Positions 1-24,000 of a DNA stretch of 33,448 nucleotides are shown here, piece by piece. This DNA comes from a virus (lineage: Duplodnaviria; Heunggongvirae; Uroviricota; Caudoviricetes). Each line of letters starts with the position of its first letter. Position 1 is the stretch's first letter. The position numbers were made by a program. The DNA is taken from the IMG/VR virus record IMGVR_UViG_648028025_000008; one strand, written 5' to 3'.

Positions 1-3000
1 TCAAATGACCAGTTTTTTCCATTCCTTACCGCGTGCGTCGTTGTAAATATCGGTCATTTTTTGATTCGAATGGCCTAGCAAAATTTTGGTATCAACCCCC
101 TGCTCTCTGAACAATCGCTCTGATAAAGATCTCTGCTCATGGAAAGAGGGAGGGGTGCCATTAGCACGCCAGTTGTAATCCACAGAATCCCGGGCTTTTT
201 TAAATGCAACGGTTAATGTTGCTGGCTTAACCATCCCGCCGCGCTTAGCTGTCCCTTTCGCGTGATGGTGGTGCAATAGCCACGGACTAAGAACGCAATC
301 GCGGCAGGATGACACCACATCATCCAGGGTGAGATTTAATTTATCGCAACGCAGAGCCAGAGGGATGGCAATCCGGGTTCCTGTTTTTTGCTGTTCGACA
401 TGAAGATAACCATCCCGGATATCCGAAAATTGCATTTTGCAAATATCTGAAAGGCGCTGGCCTGTCATCAGTGCCAGCAGCATACCGCGCTGTAAAAAGT
501 AACCATCCTTTTCCGCTGCGTTATAAATCATCATCCACTCATCAAAAGTCAGTCGCTGTCTTGATATCCGCACCTGCGGTTTTTTTGCCGATTCTGCAGG
601 GTTAAAGCCTGGCGGGACATCGCCCGTTTGCTGAGCTTCCCGGAAAACATCGATCAGTACTTTCCTGAAAATTTGTCCCATTCTGTTATGTCCTCTGGCC
701 TTGTACTCTTCCAGTACTGATACCACATCTTTTACGGTTATGGCATCTAACGGTCTGGTGCCAAAACGTTCATCAAATACCCTGAGAGGGGCCGCTTTCT
801 GTTTCAGCGTGTTGAGTTTGATCTCGCCGTTTTCATATCTTTCCTGTTGAATTTTTCTGTAATTATTCAGAAAAATGGTAACGGTTGATGAACCGCCGGT
901 ATCACTAATAATTTTCTCCTGCAGACTGAGCATTTGTTCCATTTGCTGCCGGGCAAGACGGCTGTTCGCTTCTGCTGCAATAGTTTCTGCCAGTTTCTGG
1001 TCAATACTGCCGAGACCGTGATTTTTGCCTGTTATGGGATGCCTGTAACGCCAGTAAACTTTGTTATTTCTTTTGTCAAAATACGGAGATAATCCCGGAA
1101 CATCGGTTTTATATTTTCGCGGGCGCGCCATCTTCCAGTATCCTCTTCAAAGCAGGGTGATCTGTGGCGATCACCTCCGGCTTGTTTACCATTCCGACAA
1201 AGCGAGCTTGCGGATCCACTCGCCAGCGTCTTCCAACTTTTTTGGGGAGAGGAAATATCATTCCGGCTTTAGCGTATTTACTTAACGTACTCGGAGTTGG
1301 GACCGGTTCACTGAATTCCTCTTTTGCCCACTCAGTGAGCAGAATAAGTCTTGCCATGAGCGTCGTTCGCTAATCATGGTCGCCGCCACTATAGCTGGTG
1401 GGCAACGACCGGGGTTGAACATTAAAAATCAGCCTGATTCGGGATCAGTTTTTGCCAGATAACTGAAACGTATTTTGCCTGGTAACGGGCGTCATCAAGT
1501 GCATTATGGCGCTCACCTTCGAATGGAATAGCCGTTCTGGCATCGAAGTCTATGGCTTTCCCCAGCTCAACGATTGTGCGTACATCGCGATCGTTGTAGT
1601 AACGCCACGGGCAGGGGATCCCCTGCCGTTCGTATGAACGGCGCAAAATCGTGTTGTCGAAGTTGGCTCCATTTCCCCAGACCTGAACAAAAAATTCACC
1701 GGAGTTTTCGTCGATAAATTCCCGCAATTGTAACAGTGCATCATCTAACGGGATTTCATCGGTCATAATGGCAGATTGCGCTTCGCGTGATTGCTTAAGC
1801 CACCATTTAATGGTGTCCCGATCAATGACCCCGCCAGCAGTTTCCAGATCGATAGTCTTACTAAATTCCGGCCCCATATCTCCGGTTTGCGGATCGAAAA
1901 ATATTGCACCTATTGAGATGATCGGGGCATCAGGATTTTTTCCCATGGTTTCAAGGTCGATCATTAGATGGTCACACGTCCTGCTGGTGGATGTGATTTC
2001 TTGATGACCGTTCACCTTAATTGAGTGATCTGCCGTCTCGCCAGTTTCATTATCGCTATCGTGATGCTGATTGCCGTCAGTGTTCTCCTTGTGTGGATGT
2101 TCAGCGCCTTCCATTTCCTCCGGATCATCTTCCTGAACTTCAACCTGATACTCTTCATCGAATGTTTCCTGGTATGTTGCGTCGCCCATCACCGCGCCAC
2201 AATCAGGGCAGTTGCCGCCGCCGGTCTGACCGCAGGCGGTGCAGACTTTTTCCGGTTCCTGTTGCGCTACTGGCTCAGGTTGTTTCGTTTCTGGCTCGTT
2301 TTGTTGCGTATTTGGGCTGTTTTGTTCCGCTTTCTGGTCGTTCTGTTCCGATTCTTGCTGGTTCTGGTTTACAGAATCGCGGGTTTCAATCCCCTTTACC
2401 CATTTCGGATCATTCGGGTCGCTAATCCCTGCAACAAATTCTCCGCGAGAGGCAGCAAGCAACTTATCGGCGTCAGGCTGGCTGATATTGGCTGCCTGCA
2501 TAATTTTGTTTACTTCGTCAGCGGTAACTTTTACCGGCTCTGGTTGTGCGGTCGTGTCAGATGCACCAGTATTTTGTTGTGAACCTGAGTACGTGCCGTT
2601 TTTACGTGCGAAGTATTCCTCTTTTGTGATTTCCGTAGCTCCCAAGGCTAGTGCTTTTTCCAGACCAGAAAGTTTGTTTGCGCGACCGTATTTTTCGCCA
2701 TCCTTGTCGGTGAAGAGGAAGTAGAACGGCCCCTCACGCTCTACAGATGGTTCGACTTCCACTTTGCATTCGGTTTTTTCGTTGCCCGGAATTGCCGTTT
2801 CCACTGCATCAGTTTCTGGTACTGGCGACGAGAGAGTATCAGTTGCGCTCTGATTTCTTCCTTCATCTTCAAACACGCCCTTTGTAGTCAGGTATTCAGT
2901 AATGTATTTGTTCAGTGCCACAGGGTCTTTGTGAATGTCGATCGGACGTTCACGGACAAGGCCAAAAATAGTCTGGCGGTCGTAGCGAAGGGCATCAGGC

Positions 3001-21000: not shown

Positions 21001-24000
21001 CACGTCTTCGTAAGGAGCTAAGGCTACGCTGTAAGCAGAAACGCAAGTTCAGAGCGACTACGAACTCGAACCACAATCTGCCAGTTGCGCCAAATCTGCT
21101 GAACCAGACGTTCGCTCCTACAGCACCAAATCAGGTCTGGGTGGCGGACCTGACGTATGTTGCCACACAGGAGGGATGGTTGTACCTCGCTGGCATCAAA
21201 GATGTTTATACGTGCGAAATTGTCGGCTACGCCATGGGAGAGCGCATGACAAAAGAGCTGACAGGTAAAGCTCTGTTTATGGCGCTCAGGAGCCAGCGCC
21301 CACCTGCCGGGCTAATCCACCACTCTGATCGAGGTTCACAGTACTGCGCATACGATTACCGGGTCATACAGGAGCAGTTTGGTCTGAAAACATCAATGTC
21401 GCGTAAAGGTAACTGTTACGACAACGCTCCGATGGAAAGCTTCTGGGGAACGCTGAAAAATGAGAGCCTGAGCCACTATCGTTTTAATAACCGGGATGAA
21501 GCCATCTCAGTAATACGGGAATACATTGAGATTTTCTACAATCGTCAGCGTCGTCACTCTCGTCTGGGGAATATCTCCCCGGCAGCCTTCAGGGAAAAAT
21601 ATCATCAGATGGCTGCTTAAAAAAAGAACAAATGGTAGTGTCCGCTATTGCCAGTACACCTCAATTTTTGTAGAGCCGGAGGAAACAGACCAGACGGTTT
21701 AAATGAGCCGGTTACGAATGACATGAACATATTAAAAAAAATTATGCAGCGTCTGTGCGGTTGCGGAAAGCATGATGACCGTGAAGACGGGGAGTTACTT
21801 ACAGCACAGCTGCGACTGGGACCGGCAGACATTCTGGAGTCAGATGAGAATGGCATTATCCCGGAGCAGGACAGGGTAATCACGCAGGTGGTGATACTGG
21901 ATGCGGATAAAAAGCAGATACAGTGTGTGGTAAGACCGCTGCAAATCCTGCGTGCTGACGGGACGTGGGAAAATATTGGCGGGATGAAGTAACCCGACAG
22001 CTTCACAAAACCGGAGTCCGGCTCCGGTTTTTGTTGTCATGTAAGGCAGATGTTTGTTAAAGCTATTTAAGTCTGGAGTTTAAATTAAAATAGGGAGTTT
22101 TATAATGCCGTTAAATTCGGAGATTAGATCAAGCTCATGTTTAATGGATTGAATGTCCTTCGAGCTCAAGTAGCATCTAGCGGTCGAGGGGAGTTTACAT
22201 TAGGTAATGAGACTGTCAGCATTGTATTTAATGAAACCGATGGGCGTTTTCTATCCAGCGGCAGTAGTGGGGGATTGCTTACTGAGTTATTCCTTTATGG
22301 GTTTAATAACGGCCCTGAAGCTCTTCGCGATAGGATGCTCAGTATGCTTTCGGACTCAGGTGAAGCACAATCGCAAGAGAGTATTCAGGACAAAATATCT
22401 CAATGTAAGTTTCCTGTTAGTTCAGGAAATTTCCAGTGCCCGCCAGAGTCTATTCAGTGTCCAATTACACTAGAGAGACCCGAAGAAGGAGTGTTTGTCA
22501 AAAATTCAGATAGTTCGGCAGTATGCTGCTTATTTGATTTTGATGCATTTTCTCGTTTAGCTAGTGAAGGCTCATATCATCCACTGACCCGAGAACCAAT
22601 AACGGCATCAATGATTATAAGTCCTGATAAATGTGTTTATGATCCTATCAAGGGAAACTTCATTATAAAAGATAGTTAAAATATTTTTCTCTGAGAGAGT
22701 ATTGGCTGTCAGTAATTTGTAAAAAAACGCCGCAGACATCCAGAATATAAGAAGGTGTCTGTGGTTGGCAGGTTTCAGATGACTTGAAGGCGTCTTTATG
22801 TAAATGCATTTTTCTGTGGAGATGTTGTCGGAAAATATTGGATTAAAAACATAATCCAAGTCAAATAGTAAGTTTGTTTTTTTTGAGATTAGGTGTGTAT
22901 TTAGAATTTTTATGATGTGTTTATTTTGTGGGGTATTTTAGAAAAAAATATATTAATCCTTATTAATAATAGCTGCCATCCATTTCAGCTATTATTTTAA
23001 AATAAACAAGTTAAAGCTTAGACTCTTGTTTCTTGGATTATATCAAAGATATCAACATGATTTGATGGATTATGATGTGGTAAGCCATTGCTTTCGATAT
23101 CGATTACCACATCCTCTGGATTTGGATGCCGCTGTCCAACAGGGATACCTTCTTCCATTGCGCGTATATCAGCACCTGTGGCATGTTCAATATCTGCTTT
23201 ATTGGGGAAAATAGCTCCTTCTCTTGCGTGCCACCATATACGAGGATAGTCAGTGAATCTAGCTACTTCAAACTCGGCCTTGTTTAAATCGGCAGCCCCC
23301 AGTGTCGCACCAGCCCACCATAAAATAGTGTCTGGCTTTAATCCAGGGGTATTATACTGTATGGCATGCCCTGCTGCTTGCCCAACCATTGCACCGATAT
23401 GAGGACTTAACATTGGATCTGTACTAGCAAATCTGGATACTGCAAATCCCCCTAAAGCACCAAGCGCATTTGCGGCAGCATTGGTAAGAACGGCATATTT
23501 AGTATTAGGGTTATCTAAATCCCACTTGAAATGTGCGCCAAACTCCAGCCCTAGAGTTGCCTGTAATGGAGATGCACCATATTTAAAATCTGCTTCTCCC
23601 GGTCTGATAACCCACTCCTCCGTGTAATTTGCTTTCGGCCCATCAGGAGTAAGTGGTGTTTCTCCAACAAGCTTCCATCCATTTTCAGTTTTGACTATAG
23701 GAAGTTCTACACCATGATTACGAACCACTTGAGCTGTTAATCCAAACCATGGTATTGGGCCTTTTGGCTCGGTGGTTACCGTCGAAGTAGTGGCTGATGT
23801 TCCAGTCGATGCAATAGTCGACACTGCAGTGGTTGATATATTACTGTTGCTTAATGCATTTTTTAACGGGCCAGGAAGGTCTTTAAAATTAAAACCTATT
23901 TCATCATGCAGAGGGAATATCTGTAAAAAATAATTACCTGATGTAGGATGAATATCTGGTTTTACAATGTTTAGCTGGACACCATATTTACCAGAGATGC

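Follow-up and report, generated by a model that had tools for sequence, protein, structure and literature searches.

A defective prophage in ompW of O26:H11-type Escherichia coli with an IS600 deletion scar next to its effector locus

The virus record IMGVR_UViG_648028025_000008 comprises 33,448 nucleotides (nt) of DNA, referred to here in its whole length as the window. An earlier note, made from the sequence alone, had read bases 1-21663 as a lambdoid backbone resembling Shiga toxin (Stx) phages that has lost its morphogenesis genes. Our comparative analysis leaves little doubt that these bases make up the left two-thirds of a defective lambdoid prophage inserted at the 3' end of ompW in O26:H11-type Escherichia coli, that the prophage belongs to the PPompW family, and that its virion genes were lost through an IS600-associated deletion. 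The window holds nearly the whole prophage. The kind of prophage is already known from published work and its state is one of ordinary, well-explained prophage decay; added here are the exact endpoints of the deletion, the probable order in which ISCro1 and IS600 acted, the missing spanins, a phage-82-type antiterminator, and the marking of a minority sublineage.

The ompW site and the IS600 scar

Bases 1-22000 were searched against complete genomes and gave a single end-to-end match at 100.0% identity in 20 complete E. coli chromosomes; one further genome matched with an extra IS600 inside. The full matches with a serotype in their names are O26 or O26:H11 (RM10386, RM8426, FWSEC0001). In NZ_CP074921, a record identical to the window, the window begins at the stop codon of the integrase gene, the integrase abuts intact ompW, and attL and ompW thus adjoin the left window edge. 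The element is about 34.6 kb long in this chromosome and ends at a 3' fragment of ompW (attR). Its ends carry an imperfect direct att repeat of about 121 bp (L001 4943-5063 and 39702-39822), and a 121-bp att has been described for PPompW (PMC8112680). The earlier note had named morphogenesis genes immediately to the right of the window as the finding that would point to rearrangement rather than loss. None were found there; the RefSeq annotation of NZ_CP074921 instead gives a remnant of an insertion sequence (IS), IS3, the ompW fragment, yciE, yciF, yciG and the trp operon.

The prophages in ompW were named PPompW by Nakamura et al. (2021), who reported such elements from 44% of 767 complete E. 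coli genomes, with conserved early regions, variable late regions and an effector locus at the right end, and all of them appear to be defective via IS insertions and deletions (PMC8112680). The element in the window shares the insertion in the 3' end of ompW with the att duplication of about 121 bp, the IntE-type int/xis and early region (96.5-99.9% nt identity to Sp9 and to the O145 PPompW prophage over window 1-13582 and 1-15467, respectively), and an exchangeable effector locus at the right end with members of the nleA, nleH, nleF, nleG and espM families. Sp9 of strain Sakai (CP-933P) is a near-complete member of the family. The lambda-like morphogenesis region that lies between the lysis genes and the effector locus in PPompW is absent from the window. 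This loss is secondary, because a 99.9%-identical sister copy carries the region, and it does not exclude the element from a family whose published members are variously deleted too.

The boundary between the lysis genes and the effector locus consists of the following features.

19889-20407 (+): truncated antirepressor gene, ant' (residues 1-171 of 189; tblastn)
20400-21663 (+): IS600 (IS3 family), 1264 bp with 27-nt terminal inverted repeats; orfAB at 20464-21620
21664-21715 (-): outer end of ISCro1 (IS66 family), 52 bp, an exact match to ISCro1 ends
21716-21992 (+): last 5 bases of the tail-fibre gene and an open reading frame (ORF) of 89 amino acids (aa) with the Pfam domain Phage_fiber_C

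The element at 20400-21663 has the length of IS600, inverted repeats starting TG...CA and an orfAB with a programmed frameshift, and it is 99.7-100% identical in nt to copies in many genomes. The earlier note had set an abrupt transition to the effector locus at an IS600-like element, and the end that it gave, 21663, is the exact right end of IS600. Both ends of the element are intact, and the flanking triplets are ATA on one side and ATT on the other, so the 3-bp target duplication expected of a simple insertion is lacking. These flanks derive from sites 29.1 kb apart in the ancestor. Because the flanks differ and come from such distant sites, IS600 is the scar of an IS-associated deletion and not a simple insertion. 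The 52 bp that follow are identical to the ends of complete ISCro1 copies on an unrelated plasmid, match ISCro1 on an unrelated chromosome at 100%, and also match ISCro1 at the same position in strain 2013C_3277. It was considered whether these bases are instead the divergent 3' end of a tail-fibre gene, which was rejected because they are an exact ISCro1 terminus.

The undeleted form is found in the O26-type strain 2013C_3277 (NZ_CP074868, locus L010), which carries the same prophage with 29.1 kb more and without IS600 at this position. Window 13485-20401 corresponds to L010 2-6914 (99.93%) and window 21664-33448 to L010 36014-47798 (99.975%). Between them, the additional 29.1 kb holds, in order, the last 18 codons of ant, a small ORF, Rz, further small ORFs, an HNH endonuclease gene, both terminase subunit genes, a capsid gene, a frameshifted portal gene, head-tail and tail genes, J interrupted by ISEc22, lom, a 1314-bp tail-fibre gene, and a complete ISCro1. 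The reading as a cryptic lambdoid prophage with lost morphogenesis genes is thus upheld, and the sister copy shows that the loss was a deletion.

Comparison of the two forms points to a history in which the ISCro1 insertion preceded the IS600 deletion. The ancestor would have had a full late region (R, ant, Rz/Rz1, HNH, terS, terL, capsid, portal and tail genes, J, lom and tail fibre), followed by the exchangeable effector locus. ISCro1 would then have inserted just after the tail-fibre gene, and an IS600-associated event would later have taken out 29.1 kb that began at codon 172 of ant and stopped within ISCro1, 52 bp before its far end, leaving one IS600 copy without a target duplication. 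This event may have been an adjacent deletion or a recombination between two IS600 copies, as both routes fit.

Among 185 genomes that carry at least 80% of bases 1-22000, the left (ant'/IS600) junction is present in 25 and the right (IS600/ISCro1') junction in 26, and the junction between tail fibre and ISCro1 was found in 82 genomes. The two IS600 junctions are accordingly clean markers of one O26:H11 sublineage (25 of the 185 complete carrier genomes). Each junction recurs at 100% identity in 25-26 complete genomes that several laboratories sequenced independently, and the right flank, with its precise 52 bp of an ISCro1 end, does not bear the signature of a collapsed repeat. These observations leave a negligible probability that a long prophage was merely collapsed at the IS600 repeat during assembly, even though IS600 is multicopy in such genomes and mis-joins are possible in principle.

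Another explanation would be an IS600 inversion or other rearrangement by which the morphogenesis genes were moved, either beyond the window or elsewhere in the chromosome. Events of this type do occur: inversions between PPompW and ydfJ prophages have been reported in O145 (PMC8112680), four of the 25 genomes with the left junction do not have the right junction of the window, and in strain 10153 (NZ_AP027191, L011 2523-6000) what follows the same IS600 is not the effector locus but the end of a Qin-like prophage (tfa, pin, ydfK, ynfT), which indicates a large chromosomal inversion. Sister strains thus show this IS600 copy serving as substrate for large inversions. In the identical record NZ_CP074921, however, the order of effector locus, ompW fragment, yciE and trp is collinear with Sp9, and in the pre-deletion form the two IS600 flanks lie 29.1 kb from each other and share one orientation, whereas an inversion would leave two IS copies bracketing the retained segment. 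The 82 genomes with the tail-fibre/ISCro1 junction are fewer than the approximately 160 candidates for the long form; this count is compatible with loss and consistent with absence of the junction from the 25 deleted genomes, but it is not proof and cannot establish absence in one given genome. For the window we consider a rearrangement of this kind very unlikely, and deletion is the preferred explanation.

Several points nonetheless weigh against this explanation or limit it. No intermediate was found, such as a simple insertion of IS600, with a target duplication, into either ant or ISCro1; strain 10153, the one examined of four candidates, was rejected because an inversion through IS600 has connected its PPompW prophage with a Qin-like one. 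A translocation of the missing 29.1 kb is excluded by parsimony only, on the basis of the single IS600, both att halves being in place, and the junction counts. The pre-deletion prophage of 2013C_3277 already has a frameshifted portal gene (L010 13782-16360) and a J gene interrupted by ISEc22 (L010 25298-31232). Particle production may therefore have been lost before the 29-kb deletion; these defects are seen in 2013C_3277, which would stand in for a direct ancestor deduced by comparison. Finally, the functions proposed below for the window variant are predictions from intact reading frames and from knowledge of the families. The Q gene of 2013C_3277 also has a strain-specific 1-bp frameshift (L010 770-1458), which is not present in the window.

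At the level of single base pairs, the scar records how IS elements erode the prophages of enterohaemorrhagic E. coli while the virulence cargo (paa and nleA/nleH/nleF/nleG/espM) stays fixed in the chromosome.

Missing virion genes and the effector locus

The window was searched with tblastn (E<=1e-3), using as queries all 25 late and morphogenesis proteins of Sp9 (Ant to ECs1809) together with 17 virion, spanin, Q and Stx proteins from 933W. The whole window yielded no homologue of Rz, Rz1, terminase, portal, capsid, tail proteins, J, Lom, tail fibre or Stx, and the matches were limited to Ant, NanS-p, S, R and the 89-aa homologue of ECs1809. Together with the Pfam results, this bears out the absence of terminase, head and tail genes as described in the earlier note, with the minor correction that the 89-aa Phage_fiber_C ORF survives. 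This ORF (21723-21992) is intact (Pfam E 5e-36; 98% aa identity to ECs1809) and is the sole morphogenesis-related ORF left. The alignment with Sp9 picks up again at 21716, 6 bases before the end of ECs1808.

An element without virion genes could also be a phage satellite, such as a phage-inducible chromosomal island, that never had them and is packaged by a helper. In line with such a nature, the element has int, xis, replication genes and regulators without capsid or tail genes, and potential lambdoid helpers are many, with 19 places in the same chromosome matching parts of it. Satellites of this type are recognized by a packaging signal of their own or genes that redirect a helper, and by a primary absence of virion genes; here, the absence is secondary. 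A sister copy with 99.9% identity has a full morphogenesis region at the same site, and the break truncates ant and ISCro1 while leaving the C-terminal ORF of the tail fibre. In phages of this type, the cohesive-end site (cos) lies upstream of the terminase genes. These genes and the upstream region expected to hold cos lie inside the deleted interval, the place of cos being deduced from this arrangement, and no homologue of the queried packaging, capsid and portal proteins of Sp9 and 933W remains. In addition, an O145 relative stayed unpackaged after mitomycin C despite having head genes (PMC8112680). A satellite origin is accordingly highly improbable, and secondary loss from a complete prophage remains our reading.

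To the right of IS600, Pfam identified three NleG proteins, an integrase remnant, an NleH kinase (OspG_kinase), NleF, EspM (IpaB_EvcA) and a transposase remnant. The integrase remnant is a tyrosine-integrase pseudogene at 25001-25995 (-) (Phage_integrase, E 2e-38), which is abutted by a 23-codon copy of the end of the tail-fibre C-terminal ORF (25989-26060). Both lie between nleA' and nleH1-2, and the same arrangement is seen in Sakai Sp9 (ECs1813). The pair appears to be left over from a second lambdoid prophage once nested within the first, and the effector locus would therefore be a composite of two prophage ends. A 21-codon ORF for the heat-stable enterotoxin EAST1 (astA-like) is annotated by RefSeq at 28133-28198 (-). 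It lies between nleF and the espO-like gene, within an IS remnant that is called IS1414 in the annotation of Sakai.

Retained genes and remaining capacity

The gene content was compiled from the RefSeq annotation of the identical record, Pfam, Rfam and ARAGORN, which all agree. The late control and late genes upstream of ant' are as follows.

14253-14942 (+): Q, phage-82-type antiterminator, intact, 229 aa (Pfam Phage_antiter_Q, E 1e-90, full length)
14926-14954 (+): candidate late promoter pR' (TTGCAA-17-TATATT; consensus scan)
15138-15213 (+): transfer RNA (tRNA) gene, tRNA-Ile2(CAT) (ARAGORN; Rfam)
15304-15378 (+): tRNA-Arg(TCT) (ARAGORN; Rfam)
15560-15988 (+): TerB-family pseudogene with an internal stop (RefSeq)
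15985-16152 (+): DUF3927 (Pfam)
16157-16329 (+): STnc100-like small RNA (sRNA) (Rfam, 100.8 bits, full-length match)
16354-16372 (+): strong terminator hairpin (terminator scan)
16467-18320 (+): nanS-p esterase, 617 aa, intact (Pfam SASA/DUF1737/DUF6645)
18470-18685 (+): S, S21-type class II holin, 71 aa, intact (Pfam Phage_holin_2_1)
18690-19034 (+): YdfR, intact (Pfam DUF1327)
19085-19618 (+): R endolysin, 177 aa, intact (Pfam Phage_lysozyme)

Q shares 76% aa identity with Q of phage 82 and 73% with the Q82-like protein of phage 434, and no similarity to the Q proteins of 933W, Qin or Sp9 could be detected. The only records described as 'Stx-converting' that hold the same type of Q are composite records that include PPompW. 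The candidate pR' overlaps the end of Q and is followed by a short leader and a terminator hairpin at 15003-15032. Its hexamers, the next ~45 bases and the hairpin can be aligned to the sequence that follows the Q82-like gene in phage 434, at a mean identity of 81% across 196 columns. The late control cassette looks intact, from which its function is predicted. Weak, sub-threshold Rfam similarities (isrK, isrJ, OrzO-P) were also observed at 14958-15032, exactly on the leader between the candidate pR' and the terminator.

The tRNA cassette spans 15100-15411 (+), including a promoter-like site and a terminator (15394-15411), and has 87% nt identity to ileZ-argN-argO of 933W. Two tRNA genes are supported, with Rfam scores of 72.5 and 68.1 bits. 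ARAGORN additionally predicted a tRNA-Lys(UUU) between them (15215-15290), which is annotated in O145 PPompW records and omitted by RefSeq. As Rfam matched no tRNA there up to E<=1, it was rejected as a functional tRNA; it occupies the position of argN in 933W and has probably decayed from such a copy. The interval between the tRNA cassette and nanS-p, which is the stx slot of Stx phages, is here occupied by the TerB pseudogene, DUF3927, STnc100 and the terminator (15560-16372), and neither StxA2 nor StxB2 gave a tblastn match in the whole window.

The block from nanS-p to R has 96-98% aa identity to Sp9, and S and R share 92% and 97% aa identity with their 933W counterparts. The remaining part of Ant is identical to that of Sp9 and of 933W (171/171 residues); its last 18 codons are lost, the final codons and the stop are supplied by IS600, and the full 189-aa gene is present in the pre-deletion form. 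A complete cassette of holin, endolysin and spanin is thus lacking, as neither Rz nor Rz1 of Sp9 or 933W gave a tblastn match in the whole window, and Rz lies in the deleted interval of the sister copy. The view that the regulatory, tRNA and lysis modules had been kept is therefore correct for the early genes, Q, the tRNAs and S/R, whereas Rz/Rz1 are deleted and ant is short of 18 codons. R has a Gly/Ala-rich hydrophobic stretch at an R21-like N-terminus and an E-D-T motif. By analogy with S21 and R21, which we take as the basis for this reading, it suggests that S would be a pinholin acting with R as a signal-anchor-release endolysin. Because Rz/Rz1 are missing, the outer-membrane step would be missing too, and lysis is predicted to be incomplete under stabilising conditions.

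The genes to the left of Q are given below, with compound regions listed before their members.

1-1131 (-): integrase gene int (Pfam Arm-DNA-bind_1, Phage_integrase)
1109-1357 (-): xis (Pfam Exc)
1422-5782 (-): leftward early operon with the exonuclease, DUF1482/YdfD-like, dicB, DicF, two hypothetical genes and ydfC
1422-3893 (-): exo, 823-aa exonuclease (Pfam Rv2179c-like)
4174-4362 (-): dicB (Pfam DicB)
4537-4588 (-): DicF sRNA (Rfam, 76.7 bits)
5564-5782 (-): ydfC (RefSeq; protein identity to Qin)
6419-6826 (-): DicA-like helix-turn-helix (HTH) repressor (Pfam HTH_3; 63% aa identity to Qin DicA)
6903-7130 (+): DicC/Cro-like gene facing the repressor (Pfam P22_Cro; 83% aa identity to Qin DicC)
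7114-7665: YdaT/YdfX-like (Pfam YdaT_toxin)
7637-8677 (+): O-like gene with a DnaT domain (Pfam DnaT)
8670-9131 (+): P (Pfam Phage_lambda_P)
9165-12007 (+): cargo and decay zone with a frameshifted DUF1627 gene, a fimbrial pseudogene, paa, sok and hokD
10758-11516 (+): paa adhesin (RefSeq; Pfam SBP_bac_11)
11705-11854 (+): sok RNA (Rfam, 103.9 bits)
11852-12007 (+): hokD (100% aa identity to Qin HokD)
12225-14942 (+): nin-like region and late regulator (rem-like, a hypothetical gene, YdfU/DUF968, RusA, Q)
12835-13890 (+): DUF968/YdfU (Pfam DUF968)
13891-14256 (+): RusA (Pfam)

The leftward early operon has 85-95% nt identity to Qin, and the divergent dicA/dicC pair with ydfC, DicF and dicB downstream makes this a Qin-type module (aa identities 61-94%). 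The 135-aa repressor matched an HTH domain only in Pfam, without a peptidase domain, and derepression would therefore probably occur via an antirepressor or cross-talk rather than by self-cleavage. O and P (7637-9131) are 99.8% identical in nt to Sp9. Within the replication/nin region, the stretch 9165-11516 consists of morons and decay: paa sits in a patch of low guanine-plus-cytosine content (0.42), right after the frameshifted DUF1627 gene and the fimbrial-protein pseudogene.

The reading frames of int, xis, the repressor, the Cro-like protein, O, P, Q, NanS-p, S, YdfR and R are intact, and the two tRNA genes score well. The element thus appears to retain an int/xis excision module, a Qin-type immunity switch with DicB and DicF, and O/P replication; its late part would still comprise a phage-82-type Q with pR' and terminator, the two tRNA genes, nanS-p, the S21-type holin and the R endolysin. 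At most, it could be expected to excise, to replicate, and to express a late operon by which the inner membrane would be made permeable and the wall broken down, without the step that disrupts the outer membrane. Without the cos region, terminase, capsid, tail and spanin genes, it would be unable to produce particles of its own or to be packaged into particles. Excision after mitomycin C has been shown for the O145 PPompW prophage, and its packaging was not detected although head genes are present (PMC8112680). The lasting role of the element would be that of a chromosomal carrier of paa and the nleA/nleH/nleF/nleG/espM effector locus.

It is also conceivable that Q, pR', the tRNAs, nanS-p and S-R form a module that the host has retained and that is still inducible by Q. 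On SOS induction, or on cross-induction by co-resident lambdoid prophages, such a module would provide tRNAs for rare codons together with a sialate O-acetylesterase, and would damage the envelope without spanins, which would aid the release of Stx or effectors. We regard this as improbable. If true, the opposite losses in O26 (lysis genes kept) and O145 (virion genes kept) would reflect different selective retention and not chance.

Comparison with Qin, 933W and other ompW prophages

The earlier note had proposed alignments of the whole window against 933W, the Sakai Sp prophages, Qin and Rac. When run, these placed the element nearest to Sp9 and to the O145 PPompW prophage, and not to 933W. 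Likewise, the early region that had been called Qin/Rac-like resembles Qin (5.7 kb of DNA matches, aa identities from 43% for YdfR to 100% for HokD), whereas the likeness to Rac is marginal (DNA matches of 1.1 kb and a match to the YdaT family barely above threshold). Homologues of dicA/dicC/ydfX, ydfC, DicF, dicB, ydfD, hokD, rem, ydfU, essQ, ydfR and rrrQ are found in the same relative order in Qin of K-12, with further aa identities of 63% (DicA), 83% (DicC), 94% (YdfC), 80% (YdfU) and 89% (RrrQ), and Qin is an IS-scarred remnant as well. It differs in its location at the ydfJ site in K-12, in an unrelated Q (YdfT), in having relBE, csp genes and rzpQ/rzoQ, and in lacking paa, nanS-p, the tRNAs and the effector locus.

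With 933W, the element shares the order Q, pR', tRNA cassette, toxin slot, nanS-p, S, R and ant. Matches in nt sequence comprise the tRNA cassette, parts of nanS-p (70-80%), S (86%), R-ant (98%) and the tail-fibre C-terminal ORF, and at the protein level NanS-p is 53% identical and Ant 100% over 171 residues. These matches add up to about 3.0 kb of the first 20.4 kb (~15% of bases 1-20399). The likeness to an Stx-phage backbone consequently extends only to the block from the tRNAs to ant, and this late order of tRNAs, nanS-p, S, R and ant is common to non-Stx prophages such as Sp9. The window differs from 933W in having no stxAB between the tRNAs and nanS-p, no homologue of the 933W N, cI, cro, O or P, a non-homologous Q, an 823-aa Rv2179c-like exonuclease where 933W has a Red-type exo/bet/gam, another type of integrase and another integration site, and the virion proteins of 933W have no counterpart in it. 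As stx is absent and Q and the early region are of other types, the element is not a 933W-type Stx phage.

Sp9 of Sakai (CP-933P of EDL933; O157:H7) occupies the same ompW site and is alike in int/xis, the early region, paa and hok (96-99.8% nt identity over 1-13582), in the nanS-p-S-YdfR-R-ant block (97.9% over 16474-20401), and in the effector locus including its internal integrase pseudogene (99.7-99.9% over 21716-33448). It differs by keeping Rz/Rz1, HNH, terminase, head and tail genes, J, lom and the tail fibre, so that 21.6 kb of Sp9 sequence is absent from the window. In place of window 13582-16474, Sp9 has another Q and a DNA methylase gene, and it carries ISEc8, which the window lacks. 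The PPompW prophage of 2013C_3277 is a sister copy, with 99.93-99.98% identity on both sides of the break, the same ISCro1 end and the same effector locus; it differs in the additional 29.1 kb from the 3' end of ant to ISCro1, in the absence of IS600 at this position, and in its frameshifted Q.

The PPompW prophage of O145:H28 (LC567822) is 99.9% identical over window 1-15467, from int through Q and the tRNAs, with the same att and the same Q82-type Q, and 100% identical over 27817-33448 (espO-nleG-espM-nleG). It lacks the nleA-int'-nleH-nleF segment. In contrast to the window, its lysis cassette (nanS-p, S, R, Rz) has been lost at ISEc20, whereas the genes from terminase to J are kept. Decay in the two forms is thus complementary (LC567822 15712-17445 vs window 15468-20399), and the O26 and O145 forms together reconstruct an intact late region. 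The contrast between them illustrates the published view of PPompW as defective carriers of effector loci.

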